64,000 nt of DNA from a virus: the IMG/VR virus record IMGVR_UViG_3300045988_131044, positions 19,100 to 83,099 of that record. The stretch is one strand, 5' to 3'. This document shows, in pieces, positions 4,295 through 30,639 of the stretch. Made by a program: the position numbers and the translations under genes. Numbering within the stretch: position 1 is the stretch's first letter; every line of letters begins with the position of its first letter. The notes beneath the pieces were generated by a model. That model saw only the letters and a list, made by a program, of their open reading frames with translations. It made no database searches and was not told where the DNA came from.

Positions 4295-5302
4295 ATGGGT
4301 GGTGATAAAATCGTCCTTTTAGATGGAGCCGGGGCTAACGGTGGTGGTGCAGCCACTAACGGTCTTCTTTCAATGATTCCCGGCATGTTTGCTAATTTGA
4401 TAGGTGGTAATAAAATGGATCCGAATCTGGTGGCGGCTTTGATGAACGGTCGTAATAACCAGGACGGTTTCGGTGGGGCTAACGGTTGGTGGCTCTGGAT
4501 AATTGTTTTGTTCTGGCTGTGGGGTGGACGCGGCTTCGGTAACGGTTTTGGAAATGGTGGTGATTGTTGCGCCAATGGTTTACCCGCTCAGTTGAATAAC
4601 GATTACGGTCGTGAGCTTCTGATGCAGGCAATTCAAGGTAATCGTAGCGCTATAGATCAGATCGCTTCTGCTTTGAACTGCTCTACTACTCAACTTCAGA
4701 ACGCTATCTGCAACGTACAGGGTGCTATTGATAAAGTAGCTGGTCAGGTAGGTATGACTTCTCAGGCTGTTATCAACGCAGTTCAACAACAAGGTTGTGA
4801 AATCGGAAATCAAATCAGCTCTTGCTGCTGCAATCTGAGTTCGTTGATCAATCAAAGCACTTGCCAGACTCAGGGAATGATTACTCAGCAAGGTTTTGAT
4901 AACCAGCTTCGCACGTTGGAACAAACCAATATCTTGCAGAACGGTCTCAACCAAGGTCTGGCTAACAATCGTGAGCAAGCTACAAGCCAATTCAATATCT
5001 TGTCTGCGAAACTTGACGCTCAAACCGTTATGATCAACGACAAATTCTGTCAGTTGGAAATGAGGGAGATGCAGAACACTATTGCTCAACTTCGTGAAGA
5101 AAAAGCGGCTTTGACAGCTTCGGCATTATCTCAGCAACAAACCCAGAATATCGTTGGTCAATTACGCCCGACGGCCGTCCCAGCCTACCCCTCTTGTTCT
5201 CCTTACCAGGCTTATTCTTGGGGACAGGTATTCGGAGGAGGTTACTGCAATAACGGATGTGGATGTAACAACGGATGTTGCAATAACAACGCTGCTGTCT
5301 GA
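4295..5302 (+). CDS. Gly-rich N-terminus with W-rich hydrophobic segment, Gln-rich coiled-coil middle, Cys/Asn-rich C-terminus; hypothetical structural/membrane-associated protein
   Basis: ORF 4238..5302; start placed at internal ATG 4295 because first 19 codons look non-protein; alternative start 4238. Confidence 0.45.
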   Translation: MGGDKIVLLDGAGANGGGAATNGLLSMIPGMFANLIGGNKMDPNLVAALMNGRNNQDGFGGANGWWLWIIVLFWLWGGRGFGNGFGNGGDCCANGLPAQLNNDYGRELLMQAIQGNRSAIDQIASALNCSTTQLQNAICNVQGAIDKVAGQVGMTSQAVINAVQQQGCEIGNQISSCCCNLSSLINQSTCQTQGMITQQGFDNQLRTLEQTNILQNGLNQGLANNREQATSQFNILSAKLDAQTVMINDKFCQLEMREMQNTIAQLREEKAALTASALSQQQTQNIVGQLRPTAVPAYPSCSPYQAYSWGQVFGGGYCNNGCGCNNGCCNNNAAV

Positions 5303-5325
5303 TTTTATTAAGAGAGGAGGCTAAT

Positions 5326-5739
5326 ATGGCTTGTGTTTCTAAAATAGGATCGTTGTATGAGATGGTTACGAAGAATGTTATTGTCAGTACGACAAATACA
5401 ATCTTCGGTATTAACCCACGGGCTTGGATCGCCCTTCCGTGTGAGGGTCTTATCCTTCTTAAGATAAGGCAAGTAGTCCCCACAGCCGGAAGTGCTCTAC
5501 CGGTACAGATTGCGGTCCCGGCAAACAGCACAGTTTCAACAGTAGGAGCCGACACCTGTTGCTCGGTTACGGGAGTGAATGTCGTGAACCCTATTAACGT
5601 AGCTGTAACGGGTGCTGCTATGGTAAATGGCACAGAACGCCTTCTGTACTTCAATAAAGTTCGTGGCGTGTTAAGATTAATGGATTGCTGTGTTCCAGTA
5701 GCGGCAGCCCAGGCGTCTGAAGTTAAAGCAGGTAAATGA
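5326..5739 (+). CDS. hypothetical protein (137 aa)
   Basis: ATG preceded by GAGGAGG 8 nt upstream; terminator downstream. Confidence 0.6.
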   Translation: MACVSKIGSLYEMVTKNVIVSTTNTIFGINPRAWIALPCEGLILLKIRQVVPTAGSALPVQIAVPANSTVSTVGADTCCSVTGVNVVNPINVAVTGAAMVNGTERLLYFNKVRGVLRLMDCCVPVAAAQASEVKAGK

Positions 5740-5746
5740 TTTCAGT

Positions 5747-5775
5747 AGGGTGATGGAGATCATCACCCTATTTTC
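5747..5775 (+). terminator. Rho-independent terminator (agggtgat-7nt-atcaccct + TTTT)
   Basis: 8-bp perfect stem 8 nt after stop. Confidence 0.55.
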
Positions 5776-5795
5776 ACCTAAATAATATTTTGATC

Positions 5796-6284
5796 ATGTT
5801 TTCAGATTTGAAGAAAGGGTTTCAGGTACATACCCTTGATACTAATACAGTACCTAAATACGAATTGGGAAAGGTAGTAGCCGTATCCGAACCCAGGTAT
5901 CTTCCTCCTCAGCCGGGTCAGTATCAGGCGATGCAGACCCGCGTGGTGGATCTGACGGTAGAGCTCACTGGCGAAACCAAGACCTATACGGTTCCGGAAT
6001 CCCAGAATGTGGCTAAGGCTATGGGTATAACATTATCTACCAGCATAGATCCGATTATGAACGAACTGAATGCTATAAAAAGCACCAGTCAAGACATAAT
6101 AGACAGCGTAGATACCCATCGTGCCAAGATAGAGGCTTGTGAATCTATATTAGAAGACATCAATCCGGCATTCAAACAAACGAGAGAGCAGGATCGTAAA
6201 ATAGCTGGTATAGAAAATAAGGTGAATGACCTTACTGATTCATTCGAAGATTTAAAGAAGTTAATTGTAGAACGTTTGAAATAA
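5796..6284 (+). CDS. hypothetical coiled-coil protein
   Basis: ORF 5790 begins with TTG; first ATG at 5796. Confidence 0.5.
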   Translation: MFSDLKKGFQVHTLDTNTVPKYELGKVVAVSEPRYLPPQPGQYQAMQTRVVDLTVELTGETKTYTVPESQNVAKAMGITLSTSIDPIMNELNAIKSTSQDIIDSVDTHRAKIEACESILEDINPAFKQTREQDRKIAGIENKVNDLTDSFEDLKKLIVERLK

Positions 6285-6291
6285 GTATAAT

Positions 6292-6669
6292 ATGATAGTA
6301 TATGATTTAAATTCAGGGCACAGAGAATATCCTGGATATGACGAGATAGAAGACAGACGAGGTGGAGGCAGAGGCAGAAGCCGGCGTGCTGATGGAACGT
6401 ACATGGAGTACGGACATGGGTTTCTTCCTCCTTATGATCATTACGGTATGCATGAGAAGATGAAGGAAATGGAAGAACGCGAAAACGAGCTGGAAGAAAG
6501 GGAAAGAAGGCTCGAAGAGCGCGAACGTCGTCATGAAATGGAGGACCGGGAATACCGGAGGATGGGTTACGAATCCTACCCGACCGATTACTATGGAGAC
6601 GACAGATACTACGGTGACGGACCTCAGATGCGTAGAGGTCGCGGACGTGGCAGAGGTCGTTCTTATTGA
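6292..6669 (+). CDS. Arg/Gly-rich (RGG-box-like) highly charged small protein, possible nucleic-acid-binding virion protein
   Basis: RRGGGRGRSRR at N-terminus, RRGRGRGRGRSY at C-terminus, central EERERRLEERERR repeats. Confidence 0.55.
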   Translation: MIVYDLNSGHREYPGYDEIEDRRGGGRGRSRRADGTYMEYGHGFLPPYDHYGMHEKMKEMEERENELEERERRLEERERRHEMEDREYRRMGYESYPTDYYGDDRYYGDGPQMRRGRGRGRGRSY

Positions 6670-6762
6670 GGAGCAGACGCAGAGGATCCAGCTTATCAGA
6701 AATATGTAGATACTTACGGCTACCATTTTTCTAATGCTCTTGCTGATGAGGCGGTAAAGAAG

Positions 6763-7056
6763 ATGGTCAACGTCGATGGATCCAAGAGGATCTGGAAGCA
6801 GCCGGAAATAAAAGATATTTTTGAAAAGTGCGGAGCGAAGAAGCCGGATAAAGCGACATGGGGCGATGTCCAATATGTCTTTGCAATGTACTATTCGGAT
6901 GGTTTTCCGAAGGTCTTCAAATGTGAGAACGAGTTGGTGAAAGCTACGTTAATGTATTTGGATGATCCGGATGCTCCCGAAGGAGTAGCCTTTATAAGAT
7001 GGCTTGCCGTGCAAGATTACCTCGGCGAAAAAATAAACTGGAAGGATCTGACCTGA
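6763..7056 (+). CDS. hypothetical protein (97 aa); same frame as 6292..6669, separated by one TGA
   Basis: ATG ORF; protein-like upstream in-frame sequence back to TGA at 6667. Confidence 0.45.
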   Translation: MVNVDGSKRIWKQPEIKDIFEKCGAKKPDKATWGDVQYVFAMYYSDGFPKVFKCENELVKATLMYLDDPDAPEGVAFIRWLAVQDYLGEKINWKDLT

Positions 7057-7223
7057 GATCCAGGCCCAGGCCCTTCCGGTGGTGCGGGAGCCATAGTGAA
7101 AAATATGATTCCCGCATTCCCGTTTTTCCCGTTTGGAAAAAAAGGAATAAAAAAATGTTATACCGGTCGGCGGGCAATAGAATACCCGTGGCCGGTTTGT
7201 TTCACATAACTTTTTTTTTTGAT

Positions 7224-7400
7224 ATGAATATGGCACACGAATCTAAATCAAATAAAACACCCTTGTATTTAATAGGAGAGTTGATTGGCGTACCGAATAC
7301 GGTTATGGACTCAGCATTGCATGAACTGAGAGATAGAATAGACAAAGACCCTAAATATAAAGATGTTAAAAATTGGCTCGAGTCTTTACCCAAGATCTGA
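7224..7400 (+). CDS. hypothetical small protein (58 aa)
   Basis: ATG after T-run; 5' part of ORF 6999..7400 is GC-rich terminator-like sequence, not coding. Confidence 0.3.
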   Translation: MNMAHESKSNKTPLYLIGELIGVPNTVMDSALHELRDRIDKDPKYKDVKNWLESLPKI

Positions 7401-7422
7401 ACCTATTTTTTTCAATACCAGG

Positions 7423-7453
7423 CCCGATGCGATTTTAACGTATCGGGTTTTTA
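7423..7453 (+). terminator. Rho-independent terminator (cccgat-13nt-atcggg + TTTTT)
   Basis: hairpin + T-run 22 nt after stop. Confidence 0.6.
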
Positions 7454-7502
7454 TTTTAATTCATATTGTTTTATTTTAAATCTAATTAATTCATGAATGT
7501 CG

Positions 7503-7510
7503 TACATTTG
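7503..7510 (+). promoter_or_regulatory. Bacteroidota-type -7 promoter element TACATTTG
   Basis: TAnnTTTG 17 nt upstream of ATG 7528, just after terminator. Confidence 0.35.
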
Positions 7511-7527
7511 TTGAAAAATTATTTTTT

Positions 7528-7755
7528 ATGGAAAATAAGGAAGATTACGTTGGTTACGAAGATCAAGAACTGTGTAACCGGTATTACAAAGAGGCTGAAG
7601 CCATGAGACAAAAGCAGGACTGGTCTCGGCTTAGGGCTGTCCCTGCTCCGGCCAAGGGAACGCCATCGCCCGGCTGGGGACAGCTTGGACGTGGAAATGA
7701 TGTCCGTGTTAAGTACGTTAGCATCAATTCAGGATTAGGAGGGGACCGATTATGA
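7528..7755 (+). CDS. hypothetical small protein
   Basis: first of four ORFs with overlapping stop/start codons. Confidence 0.45.
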   Translation: MENKEDYVGYEDQELCNRYYKEAEAMRQKQDWSRLRAVPAPAKGTPSPGWGQLGRGNDVRVKYVSINSGLGGDRL

Positions 7756-7970
7756 CTGTAGAAGAATTGGCTAATAAAAGATACGGTGGCGAATTTGTTT
7801 TCATGTTTGGTCATCTTGAAGGTATAACAAGATTCGTTTTTGAATGCTTTGATCCCAGACCCGATCACGAAGGTAAAAATACCTATATGGTTTCTTATTT
7901 TGAGAAGGAACTTCGTAGAAGAGATGTGGTAGATGTACCGTATTATATAAATGTTTCAGCGAAAACATGA
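7752..7970 (+). CDS. hypothetical small protein
   Basis: ATGA overlap with neighbours. Confidence 0.45.
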   Translation: MTVEELANKRYGGEFVFMFGHLEGITRFVFECFDPRPDHEGKNTYMVSYFEKELRRRDVVDVPYYINVSAKT

Positions 7971-8170
7971 AAACACTACTTTTAAACGTACCTTCTTTCT
8001 CTGGTAAGATAGTTTCTCCTACCTGGATTAAAGTCGTAAGGGATTTCCAATCTAAATCGAAGGCAGAAAGAGACTCGTATTGTTCGGTTTGTGGATGTAC
8101 GGGAGGGGGTAACTTATGCGATGATGTAAGTAAATATAGGATTTCAGAACAACTAAAATATTACAAATAA
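7967..8170 (+). CDS. hypothetical small Cys-containing protein
   Basis: ATGA overlap with neighbours. Confidence 0.4.
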   Translation: MKTLLLNVPSFSGKIVSPTWIKVVRDFQSKSKAERDSYCSVCGCTGGGNLCDDVSKYRISEQLKYYK

Positions 8171-8439
8171 TGGAATTAAAAGATTTAGTCAGGATAATGA
8201 CAAAAGAAGAGTTCGAATCAGCAATCAACGAAGATATTAAATTCGTTGAAAGATTTAAGCATTTTTTTAAACATGATGATGTTGCGAGGATAATAGAACA
8301 CGTAAAGTCAGTGTTAGAAGCATCAGTGGACTACTGCTATCCGAATCATCCTGAACCTAAAGCAGAACCTGGAGACATGGGAGAGGTTTCTGATGGATAC
8401 CATACTTTCAATATCCGAAATAACATTAAAACAATATAA
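8170..8439 (+). CDS. hypothetical small protein
   Basis: overlapping start; stop TAA immediately precedes the omegaRNA-like block. Confidence 0.45.
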   Translation: MELKDLVRIMTKEEFESAINEDIKFVERFKHFFKHDDVARIIEHVKSVLEASVDYCYPNHPEPKAEPGDMGEVSDGYHTFNIRNNIKTI

Positions 8440-8690
8440 TTCCATTATAAGGTTTTAATGTACCAGAAATGGTCCGGATATTAGCCTAAGCCTTGAAACG
8501 AAGGCTACGTTATTTGAGAATAGATAGTTACCTACGGATGTTTGTCCAAGTCCGTAGCTCTAAGGCAAGCGATTAAACAGAGATTGTATTCGGGTTTCAG
8601 TGTTGCTTGCGAAAAACCTCTTATAACATTGGCGATGGGTACTAACAGGATGAAATATTCCTGACTTATGTTGAATAAACATTAAAAACG
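8425..8690 (+). ncRNA. IscB-associated structured RNA (omegaRNA scaffold / left end of IS200/605-like element)
   Basis: non-coding block directly 5' of iscB with several hairpins; homologous inverted copy at 30640..30960 with compensatory changes. Confidence 0.6.
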
Positions 8691-8699
8691 TTTGTAGAT

Positions 8700-9920
8700 A
8701 TGGTGTATGTACAAGACATAGATGGTAAACCTCTGATGCCAACAACAAGACATGGAAAGGTTAGGAGACTGCTCAAATCAAACAAAGCAGTCGTTGTAAA
8801 CCTATGTCCGTTTACCATCCGATTGACGTACATATCCGATAGTTACAAACAAGAAATTGTATTAGGCGTTGATGCTGGAACCAAACATGTTGGTCTATCA
8901 GCAACGACGAAAAGCAAAGAACTTTACAGCAGTGAAGTAATTCTTAGAAATGATATCGTAGATCTTTTGTCTACCAGAAGAGAGCTACGGAAAGCAAGAC
9001 GGAACAGGTTAAGATATAGAAAACCTCGTTTTGATAACAGAGTAAAAAGCAAGCGTCCAGGATGGATAGCACCTTCGGTGAAATACAAAGTAGACGCCCA
9101 TATTTGCGTTATTAACAATGTTTGCTCTATACTACCAATATCTCGTATTGTTATTGAAGTAGCTCAATTCGATACTCAAAAGATTAAGAATCCTGAGATA
9201 TCAGGTAAAGAATACCAGGAAGGTGATCAACTTGAGTTTTGGAACACAAGGGAGTATGTTTTAGCAAGAGATGGTCATAAATGCCAGTATTGTAAAGGCA
9301 AGTCAAAAGATTCTATACTGAATGTTCATCATATTGAGTCTCGAAAAACCGGAGGGGATTCCCCTTCTAATCTTATAACTTTATGTGAAACATGTCACAA
9401 AGAATACCATAAAGGTAATATAGATTTAAAGATCAGAAGAGGCAAGTCGCTTCGCGACGCAGCCGTAATGGGAATTATGAAATGGAGGTTGTATGAAGAG
9501 TTAAAATCCAGATACGACAGAGTTTTTATGACGTTTGGTTACATTACGAAACATAATCGGATTAAATATGGGATTGAAAAATCCCATACATCCGACGCGT
9601 TTGTCATTTCTAAGAATATTAATGCGAAACGAATCGAACGTCAATATTTAAAACGTTTAATTCGTAGACATAATAGACAAATACATAAAATGAAAATTTT
9701 AAAAGGGGGGAAGAAGAAAAACAATCAAGCTCCTTTTGAGGTTTTCGGTTTTAGGTTGTTTGATAGAGTGTTGTATAACAATAAAATATTCTTTGTTTAT
9801 GGAAGGAGAAAATCAGGGAGTTTCAATATCAGGGATTTCAACGGAGAAAATTCAAAAGATGTTTCACGCAAAAAGTTTAAACTCATTAGAGGGAAGAGGC
9901 ATCCGATTATATTAAAGTAA
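8700..9920 (+). CDS. iscB: IscB RNA-guided HNH/RuvC endonuclease (RRXRR/HNH family)
   Basis: N-terminal PLMP motif, RuvC-I LGVDAGTKHVGLS, Arg-rich bridge RRELRKARRNRLRYRKPRF, RuvC-II IEVAQFD, HNH CQYC...NVHHI...LCETCHKEYH, RuvC-III HTSDAF. Confidence 0.85.
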   Translation: MVYVQDIDGKPLMPTTRHGKVRRLLKSNKAVVVNLCPFTIRLTYISDSYKQEIVLGVDAGTKHVGLSATTKSKELYSSEVILRNDIVDLLSTRRELRKARRNRLRYRKPRFDNRVKSKRPGWIAPSVKYKVDAHICVINNVCSILPISRIVIEVAQFDTQKIKNPEISGKEYQEGDQLEFWNTREYVLARDGHKCQYCKGKSKDSILNVHHIESRKTGGDSPSNLITLCETCHKEYHKGNIDLKIRRGKSLRDAAVMGIMKWRLYEELKSRYDRVFMTFGYITKHNRIKYGIEKSHTSDAFVISKNINAKRIERQYLKRLIRRHNRQIHKMKILKGGKKKNNQAPFEVFGFRLFDRVLYNNKIFFVYGRRKSGSFNIRDFNGENSKDVSRKKFKLIRGKRHPIILK

Positions 9921-9957
9921 ATGAACGGATTTAATAAATTTAATAGAAAAACGTATC

Positions 9958-10263
9958 ATGTATAATAAAGAAATAGTAATATGCGCGGCCATCTGGGTGC
10001 AGGACGGCAAGAAGCGTCCTCATCAGCCCACCAATATACCATCCGGCGCCGTGTTCTGTGGATTGAGACATTGTTCTATCATTTCTCAGTTTGCAGCTTA
10101 TGGTATTGCTCATAAGAACCGTAGTATTCAAGGATTTTTGACAAGCAAGAACCGGTTTCTAACAAGAGAGGAAGCGTCTGAACTTGTTAGAAACAATAAT
10201 CAGGAGATGGTGGTAGATAGGAATGCCATTAGAGAACAATTGTATTCAGAAGATTTATATTAA
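9958..10263 (+). CDS. hypothetical protein (101 aa) between iscB and tnpB; not a TnpA (no HuH motif)
   Basis: ATG ORF. Confidence 0.4.
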   Translation: MYNKEIVICAAIWVQDGKKRPHQPTNIPSGAVFCGLRHCSIISQFAAYGIAHKNRSIQGFLTSKNRFLTREEASELVRNNNQEMVVDRNAIREQLYSEDLY

Positions 10264-10345
10264 CTAAAAACAAAATAATATGGGATTTATAATTATTTAA
10301 CCAACAAAACCACCATACCTTAGCAAGTGGATGAATTGGGTTGAT

Positions 10346-10353
10346 TAATTTTG
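10346..10353 (+). promoter_or_regulatory. Bacteroidota-type -7 element TAATTTTG upstream of tnpB
   Basis: TAnnTTTG 24 nt before ATG 10377. Confidence 0.35.
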
Positions 10354-10376
10354 AATCAAAATTACAGATAAAAAAA

Positions 10377-11516
10377 ATGATTTCATACAAATACAACATC
10401 TATCATTCGAAGAAAACGAAGTATCTTGACAAGATGCTTCGTGAATGTTGTTTTGTATGGAATCATGCGTTAGCTCTACAACGTAGGTATCACAAACTGT
10501 TTGGAAAATATATTTCAGTCGGTAAGATGAAGAAACATTTTGCCAAGAGGATTAGGAGAAACTTGCTTCATTCTCAAACAACACAAGAGATACTTGAACG
10601 TCTTGATGAATCTTATAATCGTTTCTTTAAGAAGTTGGCTAAACGACCTCCTAAGTTCAAAAGAGCTTCTTGTTTTAACTCTTTTGTTTTCAAACAAGGA
10701 GGGTTTACCCTAAATGGTAATTGTCTAACAATTAACAAAGGAAAGAAACGATTTAAGTTTTCATACAGTAGATCTTATGAAGGTAATGTTAAACAAATTA
10801 GAATAGTTAGAGAAACCTGTTCCCGTTTTAGTTTGATTATAGTTACAGACTATAATCCTTCAAACTCTTATAGAAAGACACATGATGGTGCATCTATCGG
10901 ATTGGATTTTGGGCTGAAAACTTATCTGACTAAAAGCGATGGTAGCAAAATCGATTCTCCATTATTCTTCAAACAATATCAAAACAAGATTAGAAAACTA
11001 AGTAAGAAATTTTCTAATGCAAAGAAAGGATCTAATAATAGGAGAAGGAGACTGTTTGAACTCCAACAAACGTATCGTAAAATAAACAATCTTCGATCAG
11101 ATTTTCAATGGGGATTAGCACACCAGTTATGCAAACAGTATGATTATATTTTTATTGAAGATCTAAACATTGAAGGAATGAAACGTTTGTGGGGAAAGAA
11201 AGTTTCCGATCTTAGTCACTCTTCTTTTATTGACAAACTTACGTATGTTGCTTTAAAATATGGAGTGATAGTACACAAGATTGACAAATGGTATCCTTCT
11301 TCCAAAACTTGCGAATGTGGCTGCATTAATAAAGGTCTGTCGTTACGCGACCGCACGTGGGTGTGCCCGTCGTGCGGTGCAGTTAACGACCGTGATGTTC
11401 TTGCAGCCCGTAATATACTTCGGAAGGGCATTTCCGAATTGGAGAGTATGGGTAATTCCAGCGGTAGAAATACCGGGGTTTCATGCGTTTGTATCCAAGA
11501 ATCCCATTCGCTTTAG
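10377..11516 (+). CDS. tnpB: TnpB RNA-guided endonuclease (IS605 OrfB family, canonical with zinc finger)
   Basis: RuvC-I IGLDFGLKT, RuvC-II IFIEDLNI, ZnF CECGC...CPSCG, RuvC-III DRDVLAARNI; ORF 10341 begins with TTG, first ATG 10377. Confidence 0.85.
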   Translation: MISYKYNIYHSKKTKYLDKMLRECCFVWNHALALQRRYHKLFGKYISVGKMKKHFAKRIRRNLLHSQTTQEILERLDESYNRFFKKLAKRPPKFKRASCFNSFVFKQGGFTLNGNCLTINKGKKRFKFSYSRSYEGNVKQIRIVRETCSRFSLIIVTDYNPSNSYRKTHDGASIGLDFGLKTYLTKSDGSKIDSPLFFKQYQNKIRKLSKKFSNAKKGSNNRRRRLFELQQTYRKINNLRSDFQWGLAHQLCKQYDYIFIEDLNIEGMKRLWGKKVSDLSHSSFIDKLTYVALKYGVIVHKIDKWYPSSKTCECGCINKGLSLRDRTWVCPSCGAVNDRDVLAARNILRKGISELESMGNSSGRNTGVSCVCIQESHSL

Positions 11517-11540
11517 CGATGGGAGTATGTCAAACTGGTA
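11380..11540 (+). ncRNA. candidate TnpB omegaRNA (reRNA) scaffold overlapping 3' end of tnpB
   Basis: hairpin tcccat(t)cgc-ttta-gcgatggga straddles the tag stop (11496..11521), as in characterised TnpB systems; inferred, not verified. Confidence 0.3.
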
Positions 11541-11667
11541 ATTGCATAATTTAATTGAACGCAAATCCAAAGGACCCAAGTGAATCTTTTTTTGACGTAT
11601 ATGATAGAGATGAGATGAAATTAATATATGGAATAAAAATTAGTATCTTGAAAGAAATGTTTATCAT

Positions 11668-11988
11668 ATGATTACCAAGCAGGACATACAAACAGCAGTA
11701 TCGTATATTTTCCAAAGCAGTTTTGTCTCGGAAGACCAGGCAAGGAAAGTAATGGTAAGAGCCGGTAATAACGCTACCAAGAACCTTGTCAAGACCTTCA
11801 GAGGAAAGTTGTTCAAGAAGGCTTTTGGAAGAGCTCGTAGAGGAAAGGATATCAGTTCTTTTGAAAGACAAGAAAAAGAAAGTGGTTTTAATTTTCTTTA
11901 TAATCCTAATAATGGTCGTATGCGAAGCGGTCATATTATAATAGACGGAATTGGTCTGTTTAAACAAATAATAGAGTCGGGTACGTAA
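11668..11988 (+). CDS. hypothetical basic protein (106 aa)
   Basis: ATG ORF. Confidence 0.45.
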   Translation: MITKQDIQTAVSYIFQSSFVSEDQARKVMVRAGNNATKNLVKTFRGKLFKKAFGRARRGKDISSFERQEKESGFNFLYNPNNGRMRSGHIIIDGIGLFKQIIESGT

Positions 11989-12017
11989 GTTATCCGACTT
12001 TTTTATATATTTGTGGC

Positions 12018-12341
12018 ATGGCAAGAGGTTATTATTGGATACCACAAACAGATGAAACGTTAAATGGCAGAAGCTATTACGTAACTAAGGTAGTAGGAGA
12101 TATAGTGTTTGATACTAAACGAAAAAGAATAGTGTTTCAAACTACCAGGTATTTCCCAGTAGGCTCCGTATTCCATTTTACTCACAACTGTTTTAAATAC
12201 GTCATAACCTGCCGACTTCGTAAGCCTGGGCTGTGGTATGAGGCAAGGAGGGAAGACTGCGGACCTATTGGACCGGATGATGTGGAAAGGTTCGAATCAG
12301 GAAGGTTTATTCATAGAAATGGGTACAAATACAATGCATAA
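12018..12341 (+). CDS. hypothetical protein (107 aa)
   Basis: ATG ORF, terminators downstream. Confidence 0.45.
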   Translation: MARGYYWIPQTDETLNGRSYYVTKVVGDIVFDTKRKRIVFQTTRYFPVGSVFHFTHNCFKYVITCRLRKPGLWYEARREDCGPIGPDDVERFESGRFIHRNGYKYNA

Positions 12342-12390
12342 GCGTAACTTGACGATTTGCGTCAGATTATAATTTTTTTTCATATTATTT

Positions 12391-12431
12391 TTAAGCCATC
12401 AGACTGAGAAGTTAGATGGCTTAATTTTTTA
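12391..12431 (+). terminator. Rho-independent terminator (ttaagccatc-14nt-gatggcttaa + TTTTTT)
   Basis: 10-bp perfect stem + T-run. Confidence 0.65.
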
Positions 12432-12451
12432 TGATATGCTTGATTTTTAGC

Positions 12452-12459
12452 TACCTTTG
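12452..12459 (+). promoter_or_regulatory. Bacteroidota-type -7 element TACCTTTG for the giant gene
   Basis: TAnnTTTG 23 nt before ATG 12483. Confidence 0.4.
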
Positions 12460-12482
12460 TCTCATAACAAAAATGTTTTATC

Positions 12483-15400
12483 ATGGTATCAACGTGTATT
12501 ATTAAAAGAGATAATAAAAAGAAAGTTGTTTCTGTCTCTACCAGATCAGGGGACAGGTCTATGTTATTCGATAAGATAGCATCTATTCCTCTTATGGAAA
12601 ATAGGGAACGGGCTACTACTGTTTTTAAAACCGTATTTTCTAATAAGTTCTTAAAGGCTTTTGGTGACTGGAGAAGGAATGTGCCTATCAACAAACAGGC
12701 TTACAATAAGGTAAAATTCAATATCGACCTTATTCCAGAGACCTATAGAGAAAGGGTGCTGGATAAGGCTTCTAAGATGAGCAACCCTATTCTTGTGTCG
12801 AAATCAGATGCGCCTTATGGGATTCAAGAATCAGGCTTTGGATTCTACAGCCAAGATCTAGGTGATAATATTATGTTGGTGGATGCTATGGTTCCGTCAG
12901 GTATTTCCGTACCGGAAGGACCGGGAATAGACGCCGGCCAGTATCTGCAAGATGCTATATCTTCAGACTTCACTCCCGTATCTATGGTACAGGATAAGGG
13001 TGTTGATTATATGGTCATAAAAGACGGTCTTAAGATATTTAGCCCAGAAGAGCTACCAGAGGCAGATTCTAATCCTGTGGGTGTAACGTATCAGACTGGA
13101 GAGCCTCGTTTGTTTTTCATGAACGATCGTAATCAATTATTTGAAGATTACGGAGAAGCTCTTCGCTCTGGCGGGAATGATATTAGAATAGGATTCTTAT
13201 CCGGCACCGTTCAAGAATCTGCCTGGGATGGCGTGGCAGACATTACTTACAAAGCTGGAAAGTATGTTCTTAATAATCCCAAATCTTTTATACCGGTCAT
13301 GACCGCTTCCGCTTCTACTTCTTTATCAACAAAAGGCGGTATAATAAACTACCTTATAAAGAAAGGTCTTTTGTCAGGATCCAAGATATTCGATCCGGAA
13401 ACAAGAAGCTATTATCTTACAGGAGAAGGACATGCAGGACAAATTAGACTTTTCAATTCAGCCTTAGCTTATACCGATCTCCGTAATCATTTTGGTTCTG
13501 ATGTTTCCATGAACGACCAGGGTATGATAACCATAAATTCATTGGATAATAGTAAGGTAACTATGAGACTCGCCACCGGAGGAACGGAAAGGGTTAGCAG
13601 GGGGCAGATAAAGAACGATCTCAAGTCAGGAAGATACAATGAATTGGACGCCAAGTACGATCATTTTGATGCGCTTGTAGTTTCATTCATATTAGAAGAC
13701 AACGATCTTTATGCTGATACTAAAGCTAAGATCGTATCGGATTATAGCCAAGAGGAACGTAATCAACGAAATTCTATTGTTGAGATACTGAAAACGCTGG
13801 GCGTTAGTGTCGTTGGCATGACCGATTATATAGAGAAGTACCAAACTAAATACGGACACGAACCTTCTGCTAAGGCATTGGCGGATATTGCCAATAACGT
13901 AATAGCAGTCGGTGAAGATGCTACTTTGTCTGACTTAGTAGAAGAAACAGCCCACTTTCTTGTAGAGGCGTACAGAGATCAGAATGCTGTTGAGGCTGTT
14001 CTGCAAAATGTAGAAGGCACTGAAGAATGGAATCAGTATGCAGGTCAGTATTATAATACATACGGTAAGGTATATGAAGGAGCTGAGCTTGATAATGCTG
14101 TTAGGAGAGAAATTCTTGGAAAGATCCTCGCCAGGGAGATACAGACCGGCACAGCACAGGCGCCGGTAGAGCCCACCTCCTTCCTGGGGCGCGTCCGGCA
14201 GCTTCTCTCTGGAATTGTAAACTGGCTTAAATCAGCTTTATCAACCCAAAGACAGGATTTGAATAACGTTATTAAAAATATTCGTGATCTTGCTATTACC
14301 GACATAGATAAAGGATTTGATACTTCTCTTTTGAAGGATAATGACTTTACATTATACTCCCTTTCTTCTATGAACAAGAACAAGTTTCTTGAGTCTAAGA
14401 TCCGGGCATTGAGAAAAACGTTAAGAGACTTACGTCAGATAAGCTCTGATAGGGCTGTAACTACGTCTATGACCCTTGCCCAGCTTAAGACCATAGAAGA
14501 TAAGATAAATAAGGTAGAGACCGAAATAGACAAGAATGAGATGGCGGCCGCCATGAACAGCATGATCTCCACAGCCGAAGCTCAGGTTAGATACTTAAGC
14601 AACGTAGTAAATACTATCCTTCATGGTGATACCAAAGACGGTAAGCTTCATTTCAATACCAATGATCGAAAGAACGTAGATATTATCAACAATCAGGTTC
14701 TTCCGATCATGAACGATCTTCGAGGATATATCCGTAACAGAAGTACCGAATTTGATGAGCGTGAAAAGCAGGATTATACAAATAGGATCAATACCGTCAT
14801 TGCCGACATCAACGGTATTCAGTCTGATATTAAATCAGTACAAGATCTTGATGAAAGTACGTTGCTTGACAAGTTAATGAACGAACTTCATGTGCCGGCA
14901 GATAAGGTAAAGAGAGTAAAAGAGTTCTTTGATAAGGTTCAACATGATGTGTCCTGGATAAGTAGGTGGTTTGGTATATTAGAACATTCCTCCAGCCCAT
15001 TTAATAACGCTCTTGGAGCTATGATTGCCAAAGACAATTACAATGCGATGGTGAATGCCCAGCCCGCTATATCCGATTTTCTGGCATATGCGAAAAAGCA
15101 TGGTTTTAACAAATCTGAATTTGAAAAACTGCTTCAGAAAGTAGACGGCAAAACTTCTAATTACCTTCGTAGTGCCCTTGATATGGCTAAATACGATCGT
15201 AATAAGAAGCTGGCGCAGATGCGAGCGTTTGCGACCGCCATGAACATAGAGATATCAGAAGAAGAAATCAATGATGTGGTTGACAATAACCGTAATTACG
15301 TATTTAAAAGAGAAGTAGTTGACAAGGACGGAAATACGGTTACTGAGAACGCTAAATTTAAACCGTCGTCCGATAGGGTTAATACCGATATTTTTACCAT

Positions 15401-18400
15401 CGAGCAGGAAAAGATTTATACAGAACAGATGGAGAAGTGGGATGCTGAAAATTCAGAACTGGAATTTAGTGAAAGTTATGCCACAAGAATGGAATCCATA
15501 TACAAAAAGGCCGAAGAAGAATTAGGGCATCCGGTTTCTCAAACAACCAAAGAATACCTTAACGCTCTTTCTCGGCAGAAGCGGATATTGAGGCAGCCTT
15601 TTATTGATAGCAATGGTAATTTTGATGAGGTTGCTTACTATAAGAGTAGTAACTACGAAGAAGAAGGACTGCTTCGTAAACAACGTAAGGAAGCAGCTTC
15701 AGAATACATATATGTAGGAACCAGGAGAGTGGAAAAAACCGGCGACCAACTTAAGATGGCCAAAGAAATACAAGCTATAAATGAAGTTTGGAGAAAGGAA
15801 TCAAATAATGTCACTAATGTCGTATCAGAATCGTTTTTGCAAAAATTGAGAACGATTCAGAACGAGTCAGGAGGAGAAGCTGCGCTGAAGACACTTATGT
15901 TGGGAGGTCACCTGTCATTTAATGATCGGTTTTGGAATGATGTAGAATCGGAACAGTCGGCGCGCACCGAATCAAACAACAAGGCTTCGTATCTTAAAAT
16001 GGCGCATGATATCATTAGCTCTACGACAAGTGATAGAGATGCGACTGACGTGGATTCGATTGTGAAAGATATAGAAAAAAATAAGGCCATTATCAAGGAA
16101 ATAATCGGAAACAACCGAGATGTGGCTGATATCGGAGAAATTAACGAAGCGACATTTACCTCATCTGAAAGAGATGCTTTTAGGGCCGCATCTGAAGCTA
16201 TTGAAGCCGATTACGCTATTTTGATAGATTATGCTAAGATGGTGGGTCTTGAAGATATTGATAAGTACCTTACTAAAAGCAGTAAGGCTGAAAACGAAGT
16301 AAATCAGTCTTATTTAAATGCTCTTGCTGACTCCAAGGAAGTGGAATGGAAGTTTGTGCAACGTCATACTACGGCAAAGAAAGCAAAAAGGATTCAGGCT
16401 TTAAGGGATAAGCTGTTTAAAGCTGCTGATAACCGATATCTGTTTACCGTATCTGAAACCAACTACCTGTCAGAAAAGCTTGGAATAAGCAAAGAATTAG
16501 ACGGTAGAGATTTTAGGAATGCTGTCAATGCTAAGATGGCCAGCTTATTTTTAAATAACACAAGAGAATCAGGTATAGAAGAAGCTAATGCGATCGTTAA
16601 TGAATTTGCCAGGAGCCAGGTCTTTTCGTACTATAAACGCATGGCACCTACCGGATATGCGGCTATGATTGGTAAAATAGGCCGCGGTGAGATAGATGTG
16701 GCGCAGATGGTTAAAGACGTACAGAACAGTACATCCACCCAAGATTATGGCATGGACATATCATACCTGTCTTTCGACCCTGCAAGGGCATGGGTGGCTG
16801 AATCTGAAGCCGAAAATAGCGGTCGTAACCCTGATTATGTAAAAGATCATGGGTATGGTCATCGTATGCCCAAGAAAAGCCTGTATCGTGATGAATCGTA
16901 TTTCAATGACTTTGGTATCAAGTATGATGCTGACGGTAATGAGGTTGCTACTAAAAACGTAGAGCAATGGAATATGATTCAAAAACTTAAGGAAATAAAA
17001 AGACAATCCCTTTCCTTATACAAAGAGCAGAGCCCGAACCTGTATGCTATTCCACAGATATCCAAACAAGATATAGAACGTGTAGAAGGATTGGGTATTA
17101 ACTTCAAAAATACGGTTCGTAATTTTGTATCAGATCTCTGCCTGGATAGAGTAGACGATTCTCTATACGGTAAAACCAGACAAGGGGAAGTATATGATCC
17201 GGAAGATAGGCTTAGGTCTATACCTAAATACTACATATATGAATTGGAGAACCAAGATGATGTATCTCACGATTTTGGTTACTCTTATTCGATGCTTATG
17301 ATGCAATCATCGTTATACAACGAAAAGCAGAAGTCTATAGAGCTCGCTCAAGGACTGGAGCAGATGTTACTGAATAAGCAATTTGAAGGCGGGAAGAAAG
17401 CTGAAGCAACCCAAGCATATCAGATGTTCAGGGACTTCTTCAATGACCATTATTATGGCATTAGGATGAACACCAAAAAACTTACGGTGAACATCGGAGG
17501 ATATACGGTAGACCTTACCAGGATAATGATGGCCGTTGAAAGGTTTATGTCGGTTATGAACCTGGCGCTGTCCCCGTTTGTGGCAGCTACCGGCGCCTTA
17601 ACAGGTCATATCAACCTCATCATGGAATCTGCCGTAGGACAGTATATAAGCAAAGACTCCCTTAAATACGCATCGGCTGAGTTTTCACGTCTTGCGCCAT
17701 CTTGTATAGCAGAAACCGGAGACATAGATAGAAAAAGCAAATTATATGTCATAGGTGAGAGAATGGGGATATTCAATATCCGAAATCGTATGTATGGTGC
17801 CGGATACAATAGAGTAGCCAGGACCTTAATGCGTTCACCTATGTATGCTTTTATGGAAATCCTGAACTACCCTCTTGATCCGCAGGTTATGATTGCTGCT
17901 ATGGACAATGTTCGTTATTACAAAGGCCGGTTCTATACGTTCCAAGATTTCAAGATGGAAAAAGAACGCAATAAAGAACAGAGTACCATAAAAAGAGAAT
18001 GGAATGCATTAAAAGATCGTACTTTATGGAGTATGGTAGACGTCGTGGATGGGAAGGTGGTTGTAAAGCCCGGATCAGGTGTTACTGTTGAGGAAGTTGA
18101 AACCCAGATGGCTATAACCAGAAATCAAGTCCGTAGCTTGTCGCAGATATGTAACGGATCTTTGAATGAAGAAAACCGAACTGCCGCATCGCGCAACTGG
18201 ATAGCCAGGTTCATGACCGCCCACCGAGGATGGTTGGTGCTGGCGGCTCAACGCCTGTGGAAAAGACGTGGCTTCAATTTCCAAACAATGCAAGAAGAGG
18301 AAGGGTTGTCAATTACGTTAAAGAATATGATAGCCAAAACATTTAGCCTGGCTTCCGAGTCTGGTATGAAAAACATCATAGATGCCTGGAACGAAAATAA

Positions 18401-18905
18401 AGACAATATGAATGAGGTAGAAAAAACCAATCTCAAACGTCTCAGTGTCTATGCCGGCACGTTCCTTATCATGCAAGCCGTATCTATGCTTCTTGCCGGA
18501 TGGCGTGATGATGATGAAAACGAAGAAAGTTGGCTTACTCAATTTGGATCCTATGTCGGATTCAGAACCATAAACGAAATAGCTTCACAGATGCCGTTTA
18601 TTATGGAGCTTAACGTGGTAGATATCATTAACGATCCGTTTGTTATGGGGCGAAAACTGAAGGATCTTACTGATCTTAGGAATTATTCACTTGATAAAGT
18701 AACATCCGGTACATACAAGGGAGAGTCTAAGTTATTTAGGCAACTCGCCAAACAGACGTTTATCAAACAATGGTATAATATCAAGACGCCGGAAGACGTA
18801 GCGCGCGCCTATAATTGGTGGCAGCAGACGAACAACAAGTCAATGATGTTCTTCATCGGCGCCACTCCTGATTCGGAAGGTGATGAGGATACAAGCTACA
18901 AATAG
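12483..18905 (+). CDS. giant 2140-aa virion-associated protein (possible ejection/tape-measure-like protein)
   Basis: 6.4-kb ORF, ATG, promoter motif upstream, strong terminator downstream; coiled-coil stretches, one C-terminal hydrophobic segment; no RNAP DxDGD-type motif seen. Confidence 0.7.
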   Translation: MVSTCIIKRDNKKKVVSVSTRSGDRSMLFDKIASIPLMENRERATTVFKTVFSNKFLKAFGDWRRNVPINKQAYNKVKFNIDLIPETYRERVLDKASKMSNPILVSKSDAPYGIQESGFGFYSQDLGDNIMLVDAMVPSGISVPEGPGIDAGQYLQDAISSDFTPVSMVQDKGVDYMVIKDGLKIFSPEELPEADSNPVGVTYQTGEPRLFFMNDRNQLFEDYGEALRSGGNDIRIGFLSGTVQESAWDGVADITYKAGKYVLNNPKSFIPVMTASASTSLSTKGGIINYLIKKGLLSGSKIFDPETRSYYLTGEGHAGQIRLFNSALAYTDLRNHFGSDVSMNDQGMITINSLDNSKVTMRLATGGTERVSRGQIKNDLKSGRYNELDAKYDHFDALVVSFILEDNDLYADTKAKIVSDYSQEERNQRNSIVEILKTLGVSVVGMTDYIEKYQTKYGHEPSAKALADIANNVIAVGEDATLSDLVEETAHFLVEAYRDQNAVEAVLQNVEGTEEWNQYAGQYYNTYGKVYEGAELDNAVRREILGKILAREIQTGTAQAPVEPTSFLGRVRQLLSGIVNWLKSALSTQRQDLNNVIKNIRDLAITDIDKGFDTSLLKDNDFTLYSLSSMNKNKFLESKIRALRKTLRDLRQISSDRAVTTSMTLAQLKTIEDKINKVETEIDKNEMAAAMNSMISTAEAQVRYLSNVVNTILHGDTKDGKLHFNTNDRKNVDIINNQVLPIMNDLRGYIRNRSTEFDEREKQDYTNRINTVIADINGIQSDIKSVQDLDESTLLDKLMNELHVPADKVKRVKEFFDKVQHDVSWISRWFGILEHSSSPFNNALGAMIAKDNYNAMVNAQPAISDFLAYAKKHGFNKSEFEKLLQKVDGKTSNYLRSALDMAKYDRNKKLAQMRAFATAMNIEISEEEINDVVDNNRNYVFKREVVDKDGNTVTENAKFKPSSDRVNTDIFTIEQEKIYTEQMEKWDAENSELEFSESYATRMESIYKKAEEELGHPVSQTTKEYLNALSRQKRILRQPFIDSNGNFDEVAYYKSSNYEEEGLLRKQRKEAASEYIYVGTRRVEKTGDQLKMAKEIQAINEVWRKESNNVTNVVSESFLQKLRTIQNESGGEAALKTLMLGGHLSFNDRFWNDVESEQSARTESNNKASYLKMAHDIISSTTSDRDATDVDSIVKDIEKNKAIIKEIIGNNRDVADIGEINEATFTSSERDAFRAASEAIEADYAILIDYAKMVGLEDIDKYLTKSSKAENEVNQSYLNALADSKEVEWKFVQRHTTAKKAKRIQALRDKLFKAADNRYLFTVSETNYLSEKLGISKELDGRDFRNAVNAKMASLFLNNTRESGIEEANAIVNEFARSQVFSYYKRMAPTGYAAMIGKIGRGEIDVAQMVKDVQNSTSTQDYGMDISYLSFDPARAWVAESEAENSGRNPDYVKDHGYGHRMPKKSLYRDESYFNDFGIKYDADGNEVATKNVEQWNMIQKLKEIKRQSLSLYKEQSPNLYAIPQISKQDIERVEGLGINFKNTVRNFVSDLCLDRVDDSLYGKTRQGEVYDPEDRLRSIPKYYIYELENQDDVSHDFGYSYSMLMMQSSLYNEKQKSIELAQGLEQMLLNKQFEGGKKAEATQAYQMFRDFFNDHYYGIRMNTKKLTVNIGGYTVDLTRIMMAVERFMSVMNLALSPFVAATGALTGHINLIMESAVGQYISKDSLKYASAEFSRLAPSCIAETGDIDRKSKLYVIGERMGIFNIRNRMYGAGYNRVARTLMRSPMYAFMEILNYPLDPQVMIAAMDNVRYYKGRFYTFQDFKMEKERNKEQSTIKREWNALKDRTLWSMVDVVDGKVVVKPGSGVTVEEVETQMAITRNQVRSLSQICNGSLNEENRTAASRNWIARFMTAHRGWLVLAAQRLWKRRGFNFQTMQEEEGLSITLKNMIAKTFSLASESGMKNIIDAWNENKDNMNEVEKTNLKRLSVYAGTFLIMQAVSMLLAGWRDDDENEESWLTQFGSYVGFRTINEIASQMPFIMELNVVDIINDPFVMGRKLKDLTDLRNYSLDKVTSGTYKGESKLFRQLAKQTFIKQWYNIKTPEDVARAYNWWQQTNNKSMMFFIGATPDSEGDEDTSYK

Positions 18906-19041
18906 ACGAAGAATATCGAGCTTACATTACTTTGATGTGAGCCAGATATGTTATCTTAGCATTGTCAAAGAGTAGACTATACGTTTTTTGTTCTTACTTT
19001 AAGGTTATGTAGGTTAAATTTTTTCTGAAATTGTTTTCTTA

Positions 19042-19735: not shown

Positions 19736-19739
19736 AATT

Positions 19740-30603: not shown

Positions 30604-30639
30604 ATCTCATATTCTATTAAATATATTTAAAGCTATTCA

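Follow-up and report, generated by a model that had tools for sequence, protein, structure and literature searches.

Why would a phage carry, side by side, genes for two RNA-guided nucleases and no transposase to move them? Cas9 and Cas12 descend from IscB and TnpB, for which the only natural role shown so far, in bacteria, is to back up transposition driven by TnpA. The question is raised by a 64,000-nucleotide stretch of viral DNA (the window; positions 19,100 to 83,099 of IMG/VR record IMGVR_UViG_3300045988_131044), in which a preliminary description had placed iscB and a zinc-finger-containing tnpB in the same orientation, about 450 bp apart, with only a 101-aa ORF other than tnpA between them. 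[quoted passage not shown] The reading that we favor, at a probability of about 0.7, is that these are two independent, non-autonomous OMEGA elements of the IS200/IS605 family in an epsilon crAss-like phage, which home by means of guides derived from their flanks. The features of the locus, all on the plus strand, are as follows.

8170 to 8439, plus: remnant (~85 codons) of a 251-aa WDGH and Tad2-like gene, cut off by the deletion adjacent to IscB
8395 to 8410, plus: predicted IscB guide, GGATACCATACTTTCA, flanking phage DNA inside the truncated WDGH/Tad2-like gene
8411 to 9957, plus: complete IscB mobile unit, 1,547 bp; the ATG of the native 101-aa gene follows directly at its TAM-side end
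8411 to 8665, plus: IscB omegaRNA scaffold (HEARO); the conventional right end, read on the opposite strand
8700 to 9920, plus: iscB, 406 aa, with PLMP, RuvC, and HNH regions (Pfam RRXRR, 3.7e-60; HNH, 4.8e-11)
9958 to 10263, plus: native phage gene, 101 aa, phrog_839 (PHROG match, 1.9e-15); part of neither element
10286 to 10290, plus: TAM TTTAT abutting the TnpB left end; codons 2 to 4 of a disrupted 116-aa phage gene with its ATG at 10280
10291 to 11533, plus: complete TnpB mobile unit, 1,243 bp; left end (G/A)ATTATTTAACC..., right end ...GGGAGTATGTCAA
10377 to 11516, plus: tnpB, 379 aa (Pfam OrfB_IS605, 4.2e-18; Cas12f1-like_TNB, 6.2e-20), Zn ribbon intact
11413 to 11533, plus: TnpB omegaRNA/reRNA scaffold, the last ~120 nt of the unit; takes in the right-end hairpin as well as the 3' end of tnpB
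11534 to 11549, plus: predicted TnpB guide, ACTGGTAATTGCATAA, flanking phage DNA just downstream of the right end

The window comes from an epsilon crAss-like phage that is approximately 92 to 98% identical to crAssE-Sib, and the elements have inserted upstream of the giant structural gene, in a variable block made up of small accessory genes, for which the earlier term "structural module" is loose. crAssE-Sib lacks both the IscB unit and the TnpB unit, yet it has the intervening 101-aa gene in the same place (L001, 7052 to 7357; 84% nucleotide identity). IMG/VR holds 351 stretches with this IscB and 321 with this TnpB, and the best 80 of each were fetched (160 element-bearing loci, mostly on contigs of 75 to 160 kb). 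Each unit occurs at about 20 to 30 further phage sites, with multiple copies per genome; for IscB, no bona fide bacterial genome with a close relative emerged from a scan of GTDB species representatives. The idea of a landing zone is not supported: among 23 related loci spanning the site, 4 hold TnpB there and 19 are empty, and both elements sit at dozens of other sites.

These comparisons bear on how the two genes came to be neighbors. Their short spacing and shared strand would suit a single composite or nested element carrying both nucleases, but a native gene lies between the units, each of which has ends and a TAM of its own and is found by itself elsewhere, and all four combinations (IscB and TnpB, IscB only, TnpB only, and neither) are seen at this locus in related phages. 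The IscB-only, TnpB-only, and empty genomes refute a composite element, the probability of which we put at practically nil; of the arrangements previously offered, two adjacent insertions hold, while nesting or a composite fails on the native gene between the units and their independent segregation. A second possibility is that the genes are ancestral and vertically inherited, or have been domesticated, for example as nuclease-dead, TldR-like RNA-guided regulators. In about 20 related phages, IscB indeed shares this right junction; however, the dozens of other sites, the multiple copies per genome, the empty alleles, the intact catalytic residues, and flank-derived guides that differ at every site all speak against this possibility. 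We therefore regard this explanation as very improbable. The comparison with insertion-less relatives that the preliminary description had called for uncovered empty-site alleles, which contradict the ancestral-gene reading that it had named as its possible refutation, and fixed the boundaries at 8411 to 9957 and 10291 to 11533.

For the IscB unit, these boundaries follow from copies in other contexts (77 to 98% nucleotide identity; at least 12 left and at least 7 right flanks) and from empty alleles with a 0-bp gap at five other insertion sites, which also show that no target duplication is made. The right flank begins with an ATG in every case, the reverse complement of a TTCAT-like TAM, and in the window this is the ATG of the 101-aa gene (9958). 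In each of the 18 distinct contexts that were scored, the full-length copy lies directly 5' of the start codon of a gene, and of 22 guide-side junctions, 18 have an ATG next to them in unoccupied alleles (background, 2%). The unit runs antisense to the conventional left-to-right direction, and since its omegaRNA scaffold starts at the element boundary, the guide would be the phage DNA just upstream. Rfam RF02033 (HEARO) matches 8436 to 8646 with 105.2 bits (gathering score, 83), and the 5' extension from 8411 pairs ATATCCG with CGGATAT and ACATTAAAAC with GTTTTAATGT; helices of this extension show compensatory changes between subfamilies (ATAATCG/CGATTAT and ATAACCC/GGGTTAT). In more than 12 flank contexts, the scaffold begins at the element boundary. 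As DNA, the omega end folds at -15.3 kcal/mol (z = -7.0), and the TAM-side end has no significant hairpin (z = -0.5).

The limits of the TnpB unit were set from about 30 flank contexts, some 10 of which have empty alleles with a 0-bp gap. NTTAT ends all 24 distinct left flanks (TTAT background, 1%), and the right end is GTCA(A), GTCAA in the window. The mechanical ORF starts from a TTG at 10341, while homologues begin at the ATG at 10377. The TnpB omegaRNA has no match among Rfam families. Its consensus fold comprises 44 pairs, compensatory changes occur in 10 of these, and ORF-less mini-elements at two loci (L013 and L043) keep exactly the 117-nt scaffold stretch. The right-end hairpin is modest (-7.5 kcal/mol, z = -1.8) and shows compensatory changes; that of the left end is not significant (z = +0.5).

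Elsewhere in the window lies a second omegaRNA of the IscB type, without an iscB gene.

30604 to 30967, minus: IscB-type omegaRNA mini-element (Rfam HEARO, 95.2 bits)

Over the 5' 260 nt of the IscB unit, its identity is 78%; it also matches the 3' 40 nt of that unit, has a guide of its own at 30968 to 30983 (minus), and ends just 5' of the ATG of a 115-aa ORF (30603 to 30256). At one other locus, the guide of the mini-element is followed by ATGGAATTG, i.e., an empty site. This gene-less omegaRNA, the HEARO omegaRNA of the IscB unit, and the true element limits had all been missed in the preliminary description.

Both nucleases look functional, judging from their catalytic residues, purifying selection, and conserved RNA structures. 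IscB matches solved OgeuIscB structures at ~1e-41, and its alignment to OgeuIscB-type chains keeps the RuvC residues D, E, H, and D and the HNH histidine, in the motifs GKPLMPTTR, LGVDAG (D), IEV (E), HHIE (HNH), and HTSDA (H, D). TnpB matches ISDra2 TnpB at 1.5e-29 and keeps the D-E-D triad (GLDFG, IEDL, and NDRD) and both cysteine pairs of the CxxC...CxxC ribbon. Median dN/dS is 0.13 for iscB (78 intact homologues) and 0.139 for tnpB (79 intact homologues).

A transposase, in contrast, is missing. With IS200 and IS608 TnpA sequences as tblastn queries, no Y1/HUH TnpA was found in the 64-kb window or in the 160 element-bearing loci, and only ~85 nt separate the TnpB left end from the gene, with no element-encoded TnpA. 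Both elements are non-autonomous in this genome, as first described, but the absence of TnpA does not extend to the phage population: 17 large viral contigs (82 to 157 kb), at least one of them crAss related, carry an autonomous relative with both TnpA and TnpB (Pfam Y1_Tnp, 1.3e-39, for the TnpA copy in L002). The TnpB encoded beside this TnpA is 72 to 76% identical to the solo TnpB, and the right end is the same; yet the relative uses TTAC rather than TTAT and a different left-end hairpin, so that its TnpA may fail to mobilize the solo TnpB. We found no TnpA linked to the IscB family of the window.

Nor are the two copies simple insertions, as each goes with a loss of neighboring phage DNA. 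The missing DNA lies on the guide side, ~770 bp of it beside IscB and 202 bp beside TnpB, and both deletions end exactly at a TAM. The former removed two thirds of the WDGH/Tad2-like gene together with a 91-aa gene: the intact homologue (L001, 6021 to 6776) matches Pfam WDGH at 8.9e-37 and Tad2-like at 8.7e-13, and homology to L001 stops at 8412. The latter lies inside the 116-aa gene. The pattern recurs across the phage population as a nested, TAM-to-TAM series, and because the deletions end exactly at a TAM, the guides are predicted to target sibling genomes that are undeleted. What would be expected of homing, a target in the element-less allele that is absent from the carrier, is indeed found for both guides. 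The IscB 16-mer GGATACCATACTTTCA is followed by ATG(AA), the TAM, in 16 related loci, 10 of which already hold IscB with a smaller deletion; in the window, it abuts ATA, the scaffold start. Likewise, TTTAT stands directly 5' of the exact TnpB 16-mer ACTGGTAATTGCATAA in 10 loci without TnpB at the site, and also in crAssE-Sib, whereas in the window the right end GTCAA takes its place. Not every copy is a working drive, however: in four IscB alleles, micro-deletions of 4 to 10 nt at the guide-scaffold junction would put the guide at the wrong distance from the TAM.

On these sequence patterns, the elements most likely serve for RNA-guided homing, or gene drive, when phages co-infect a cell, with guide length and TAM stringency that we infer by analogy. 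Each nuclease, with its flank-derived guide, would cut co-infecting sibling genomes that retain the TAM and protospacer, whether these are empty alleles or alleles with smaller deletions, and recombinational repair from the element-bearing genome would copy in the element plus its deletion. Thus, the elements probably spread by cutting siblings that lack the insertion or the adjacent deletion and then being copied in. Such homing would need co-infection and an active recombination pathway in these uncultured phages. New sites and TAM-to-TAM deletions would need a Y1 transposase in trans, which the host or the rare autonomous TnpA and TnpB copies in the phage population could supply; the deletions may instead have arisen by recombination between two nearby copies.

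Two further explanations have to be weighed. The elements could be passengers moved solely by TnpA in trans, with the nucleases only re-installing an element after its excision from the same genome ("restorative" homing). Experiments have shown just this role for TnpB and IscB (PMC10055086), and relatives bearing TnpA exist in the same phage population. With TnpA absent from the window and the 160 loci, though, excision should be rare, yet purifying selection is strong, and perfect TAM-plus-protospacer targets are common in sibling genomes; we consider this explanation unlikely, albeit the most serious of the rivals. Alternatively, the guides might mainly destroy rival sibling genomes, as in marker exclusion, to the gain of the carrier phage as well. 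In keeping with such a weapon, the guides match sibling alleles, alleles with a larger deletion are immune to guides from those with a smaller one but not vice versa, and phage homing endonucleases are known to act in this way (reviewed in PMC13565253). Sequence data alone are compatible with either killing or conversion, but the same cut would lead to conversion wherever homologous flanks exist, and the flanks here are 90 to 98% identical. A predominantly destructive role hence seems to us quite improbable, and homing between genomes is the reading that we retain.

How do these elements compare with known ones? As in the IscB-omegaRNA elements of the ISC/IS200-IS605 type (HEARO; OgeuIscB, Geobacillus ISGst5), a PLMP-RuvC-HNH protein is preceded on the same strand by a HEARO omegaRNA, the DNA beside the scaffold end provides the guide, the TAM lies on the opposite flank, no target is duplicated, and most copies lack TnpA. 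The TAM resembles TTCAT, being NNCAT here and read as ATG on the iscB strand. Unlike OgeuIscB (~496 aa), however, the IscB of the window has 406 aa, with some 70 C-terminal aa unaligned; the 5' hairpin of its omegaRNA exceeds that of the Rfam HEARO consensus in length; and the family is carried by lytic-type crAss-like phage genomes. The TnpB unit shares with the IS605 group (ISDra2, IS608, ISGst2) the D-E-D RuvC triad, the Zn ribbon, an omegaRNA/reRNA overlapping the 3' end of the gene, and a guide formed by the DNA just beyond the right end, which finishes in TCAA as in IS608; its TAM (TTTAT/NTTAT) is identical to that of ISGst2 TnpB2. It differs in having no tnpA, a left end so near the gene and without a significant hairpin, a phage as carrier, and frequent guide-side deletions. 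Both TAMs match those published for GstIscB (TTCAT) and GstTnpB2 (TTTAT), each located 5' of the left end (PMC10055086). In the same phage group, a 2024 study in Viruses (PMC11054128) reports TnpB "transposases" in crAssE-Sib and some Epsilonunovirus genomes and recognizes TnpB as an RNA-guided nuclease family; it mentions only two TnpB genes, and a term search of its text gave neither HNH nor IS200. Our literature search for IscB with crAss returned nothing relevant. A further parallel is offered by T-even phages and their free-standing homing endonuclease genes (SegF, SegB, Mob), which likewise lie between conserved phage genes at the edge of a variable region, cut the allele without the gene, and co-convert flanking DNA. 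In contrast to these proteins, recognition here would rest on a flank-derived RNA guide and a TAM of 3 to 5 nt, and because the guide is flank derived, any change in the flank re-targets the nuclease. Homing between genomes corresponds to the "non-restorative homing" that a recent review includes among the types of homing (PMC13565253).

The significance of these elements lies in their number and setting: hundreds of intact, transposase-less copies reside in abundant human-gut phages, with guides that read onto sibling phage genomes, and homing between genomes is directly testable in this natural system. Because the nucleases are compact (406 and 379 aa), have inferred TAMs, and come with numerous natural pairs of guide and target, they are also ready candidates for genome-editing tools. 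For the phages themselves, the nested TAM-to-TAM deletions suggest a simple route by which a nuclease is retargeted while accessory regions, including putative anti-defense genes, are reshaped. It is tempting to go one step further, tentatively, and to propose that each TAM-ended deletion re-programs the guide and so becomes a gene drive of its own, the new guide attacking every genome in which the deleted DNA is still present, with the deleted genome itself immune, in a one-way ratchet that would erode dispensable accessory genes of crAss-like phages. If true, a putative anti-Thoeris gene (Tad2-like) would be among the genes eroded here, and the ratchet would account for the upkeep by selection of transposase-less OMEGA nucleases in lytic-type phages.

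Outside the insertions, the flanks in the window are 92 to 98% identical to crAssE-Sib (OR575929; locus L001), a 151-kb epsilon crAss-like phage from the human gut that carries neither the iscB nor the tnpB element at this locus.

Features of the window and their counterparts in crAssE-Sib (L001)
5001-7990: phage DNA, L001 3002-5988
8178-8412: phage DNA, L001 6041-6275
8395-8410: predicted IscB guide, GGATACCATACTTTCA, the flank directly upstream of the unit
8411-9957: IscB unit, limits from independent copies
8436-8646 (+): HEARO RNA, the IscB omegaRNA (Rfam 105 bits, gathering score 83)
8700-9920 (+): iscB, 406-aa ORF (Pfam RRXRR, 3.7e-60; HNH, 4.8e-11)
9955-10293: phage DNA, L001 7049-7388
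10291-11533: TnpB unit, limits from independent copies
10377-11516 (+): tnpB, 379-aa ORF (Pfam OrfB_IS605 and a Cas12f1-like TNB Zn-ribbon domain)
11534-11549: predicted TnpB guide, ACTGGTAATTGCATAA, the flank just past the right end
11534-11972: phage DNA, L001 7588-8026
11971-14998: phage DNA, L001 8201-11210
30604-30967 (-): second HEARO/omegaRNA (Rfam 95 bits), a mini-element of ~360 bp without an iscB gene

Where crAssE-Sib has 773 bp of phage DNA the window has the IscB block, and where it has ~200 bp the window has the TnpB block. The 101-aa ORF between iscB and tnpB is native to the phage (L001 7052-7357; phrog_839), and all four presence/absence genotypes occur: both elements in the window and L018, IscB without TnpB in ~19 loci, TnpB without IscB in L084 and L088, and neither in crAssE-Sib. 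On these grounds the composite or nested element envisaged in the preliminary description has to be abandoned in favor of two independent, intact, non-autonomous OMEGA elements. The TnpB site is occupied in 4 and empty in 19 related loci. Nor is there any sign of a special landing zone, as had also been proposed, since a full TnpB lies within 5 kb in only 4 of 79 IscB loci (L006, L018, L056, and L065). An IStron, which would combine a group I intron with TnpB, was rejected because an Rfam E-value scan of 7000-13000 returned HEARO only. Elsewhere in the neighborhood, Arg, Glu, Gly, Tyr, and Met make up an extremely large share of a 125-aa ORF (6292-6669, +) that is conserved in crAssE-Sib and contains RGRGRGR and ERE repeats. 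At ~19000-20000, both the GC skew and the coding strand switch (genes on + before ~19 kb and on - after it), a divergent module boundary just 3' of the 2140-aa structural gene (12483-18905).

Both nucleases appear complete. IscB matches OgeuIscB-type chains among solved structures at ~1e-41 and, in this alignment, keeps GKPLMPTTR, the RuvC Asp/Glu/His/Asp residues, and the HNH His, while the alignment of TnpB with ISDra2 TnpB covers the full length (1.5e-29), with its D-E-D triad and both Cys pairs conserved. All homologous ORFs recovered are intact (78/78 for IscB, 79/79 for TnpB), and both nucleases are under purifying selection, with a median dN/dS against the window copy of 0.13 for IscB (78 ORFs) and 0.139 for TnpB (79 ORFs). 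The initial observation of co-oriented iscB and tnpB genes without TnpA is thus confirmed by ORFs, Pfam domains, and structure alignments, and by the lack of any Y1 transposase detectable with TnpA queries anywhere in the 64-kb window; the same queries did pick up a true, Pfam-confirmed TnpA in L002. Among the other fetched genomes, only L018 carries both elements at these sites, and its tnpB, which has a 100-bp internal deletion at ~6891 (window 10594-10693), is a decaying copy.

The limits of the IscB unit follow from its independent copies. Relatives of the window IscB are encoded in 351 IMG/VR stretches, of which the best 80, most on contigs of 75-160 kb, were fetched. Among these, the unit recurs at 77-98% nucleotide identity in at least 12 left and at least 7 right flanks, always starting with ATATCCGAAATAAC (ATAATCG or ATAACCC in other subfamilies) and always ending right before the start codon (ATG) of a gene in the same orientation. 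At five other insertion sites, unoccupied alleles join both flanks with a gap of 0, which proves the boundaries and shows that no target duplication occurs. At its start, the unit has 7 nt that pair with the 7 nt preceding TTAGCC, and ACATTAAAAC pairs with GTTTTAATGT in a second helix; both 5' helices show compensatory changes between subfamilies. RNAalifold missed the 5' helix owing to alignment gaps, and its assignment rests on inspection, a DNA fold (z = -7.0), and its coincidence with the empirically defined boundaries. Because these helices lie at the start of the unit, the omegaRNA scaffold starts at the element boundary and the guide must correspond to the upstream flank. The alternative, a guide inside 8413-8435 (from the break in crAssE-Sib homology to the Rfam match), was rejected, as all contexts conserve this stretch and it pairs with the downstream scaffold. 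The right flanks read ATGAA, ATGTA, ATGTT, ATGAT, and ATGGC, the reverse complement of NNCAT. As reported by Meers et al. (PMC10055086), GstIscB has the TAM TTCAT and GstTnpB2 the TAM TTTAT, each oriented 5' of the conventional left end. The flanks thus place iscB antisense to the conventional left-to-right direction, the orientation expected when the TAM of a nuclease is 3' of its target.

For TnpB, the best 80 of 321 IMG/VR stretches encoding relatives were fetched, again mostly from contigs of 75-160 kb. In ~30 contexts among these copies, NTTAT is followed by (G/A)ATTATTTAACC at one end of the unit and GGGAGTATGTCAA at the other, and then by flank; for ~10 of them there are gap-0 empty alleles. 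NTTAT ends all 24 distinct left flanks (background, 1%), and the last ~120 nt of the unit adopt a conserved fold with 10 compensatory pairs. The suggested comparison with related phages lacking the insertions therefore yielded element limits from gap-0 empty alleles and target motifs, NTTAT for TnpB and NNCAT for IscB. Two mini TnpB elements without an ORF (L013 3212-3425 and L043 794-1005), made of 95 nt of left end and 117 nt of right end, exactly the omegaRNA scaffold, are analogous to palindrome-associated miniature derivatives.

Unoccupied alleles contain the predicted targets. In crAssE-Sib, the window's IscB guide is followed by ATGAATTG, and TTTAT directly precedes the exact TnpB-guide 16-mer both there and in 10 loci without TnpB at the site. 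In the window itself, the IscB-guide 16-mer abuts ATA of the scaffold and the TnpB-guide 16-mer abuts GTCAA of the right end instead of a TAM, so that the phage is predicted not to target itself.

Together with exact boundaries, TAMs, and guides, and empty alleles with a perfect TAM and protospacer, the comparison reveals recurrent deletions that run from TAM to TAM on the guide side. In both window copies, phage DNA is missing on this side only. On its left, the IscB unit interrupts a 251-aa WDGH + Tad2-like gene at a point where intact alleles continue with ATGAA; on its right, it meets the ATG of the 101-aa gene, and the 766-778 bp between these two points are lost. For TnpB, the left junction is formed by TTTAT in codons 2-4 of a 116-aa gene, and the right junction comes directly after another TTTAT located 202 bp further downstream. 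That the apparent deletions are instead insertions in the empty alleles was rejected, as crAssE-Sib has intact ORFs that include the missing DNA. The IscB right junction is constant at the 101-aa-gene site, whereas its left junctions are nested, with losses of 265, 269, 279, ~385, ~645, ~770, 1087, 1251, 1302, and at least 1686 bp. In unoccupied alleles, ATG follows 18 of 22 distinct IscB guide-side junctions (expectation, 2%), and the remaining four stop 4-10 nt short of such an ATG. At least 11 TnpB contexts likewise lack 12-2960 bp relative to unoccupied alleles, and several series combine one left flank with differing right-end flanks (L092/L102/L094, L099/L113, L152/L159, L097/L107, and L083/L082); in unoccupied alleles, the TnpB guide is preceded by NTTAT, occasionally by TTTAC, CTTAC, ACTAC, GATAT, or GCTAT. 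Four IscB alleles (L006, L010, L065, and L081) have lost 4-10 nt at the guide-scaffold junction compared with sibling alleles, shifting the guide off the TAM, and may be disabled or escaped copies. In the window, 8170-8439 is a remnant of the gene cut by the IscB-adjacent deletion, whose intact version (L001 6021-6776) carries WDGH and Tad2-like (Thoeris anti-defence 2) domains; as only ~85 codons are kept, the putative anti-defence function has probably been lost.

These deletions bear on which phages could be cut. The window's IscB guide plus ATG is found in 16 related loci, 10 of which already carry IscB with a smaller deletion, and the window in turn holds targets of larger-deletion IscB alleles at 7787-7805 and 7736-7754. 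Larger-deletion alleles are therefore predicted to cut smaller-deletion and empty alleles and not the reverse. Counting these two, six unoccupied TAM-plus-protospacer sites in the window (the others being 28849-28876, 46703-46722, 59880-59899 on -, and 41970-41986 on -) match guides of TnpB or IscB copies in L103, L095, L108, L051, L021, and L011/L019, making the window a predicted target of several foreign elements. The orphan omegaRNA at 30604-30967 takes a guide of its own from its flank (30968-30983, -), and its mini-element stops directly in front of the start codon (ATG) of ORF 30603-30256; it recurs at the identical site in L023, with related orphans at other sites in L013 and L135, and could be served in trans by the IscB encoded at 8700-9920.

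A possible transposase source exists for TnpB. An autonomous relative, in which tnpA is divergent from a tnpB whose protein shares 72-76% identity with the window's, is present in virome scaffold MT839900 (L002 359-1983; TnpA matches Pfam Y1_Tnp at 1.3e-39) and in 17 IMG/VR contigs of 82-157 kb (L162-L177 and L184), at no fewer than seven different insertion sites in large viral contigs. One such contig also contains a solo TnpB (L152), and in another a flank matches the window at 83% identity. Large viral contigs, at least one of which is window-related, therefore do carry TnpA, if rarely. The relative shares the right end GGGAGTATGTCAA and its left end reads GATTTTATCCAAAGCCCCTC, but its TAM (TTAC) and left-end hairpin differ from those of the solo element, so that its TnpA may not mobilise the latter. 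For this IscB family, no linked TnpA was seen. Among GTDB species representatives, a scan with an IscB alignment gave one close match, an 85%-identical IscB on a 20-kb contig labelled Vibrio olivae CECT 8064 (NZ_JBHMEP010000019.1; L212). Its flanks match crAss-like phage loci, which led us to reject a bacterial source; the contig is very likely contaminating phage DNA, not Vibrio sequence, and the family looks phage-restricted at the sensitivity of this search.

IscB, TnpB, HEARO, and their homing role are already known, IscB-like and TnpB-like ORFs already form PHROG families (phrog_119 and phrog_506), and TnpB genes have been noted in crAssE-Sib (PMC11054128). Our literature search found nothing specific on IscB in crAss-like phages or on TnpB-driven co-infection drive, and no description of IscB-omegaRNA elements in these phages, of their start-codon-adjacent placement, of orphan omegaRNAs there, or of guide-side deletion series.

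The deletions might arise if TnpA acting in trans joined the right end to a downstream TAM, consistent with HUH chemistry. Alternatively, two nearby copies might recombine, although relaxed motifs at some endpoints make this slightly less likely as the sole route, or selection might retain those rare deletions that by chance yield a functional guide. During co-infection, IscB and TnpB would act as RNA-guided homing endonucleases, a role that would account for the selection acting on them in genomes that lack TnpA. A deletion ending at a TAM would give the element a guide against undeleted genomes and could thereby spread, and this population-level pattern of guide-side deletion series is worth following up.
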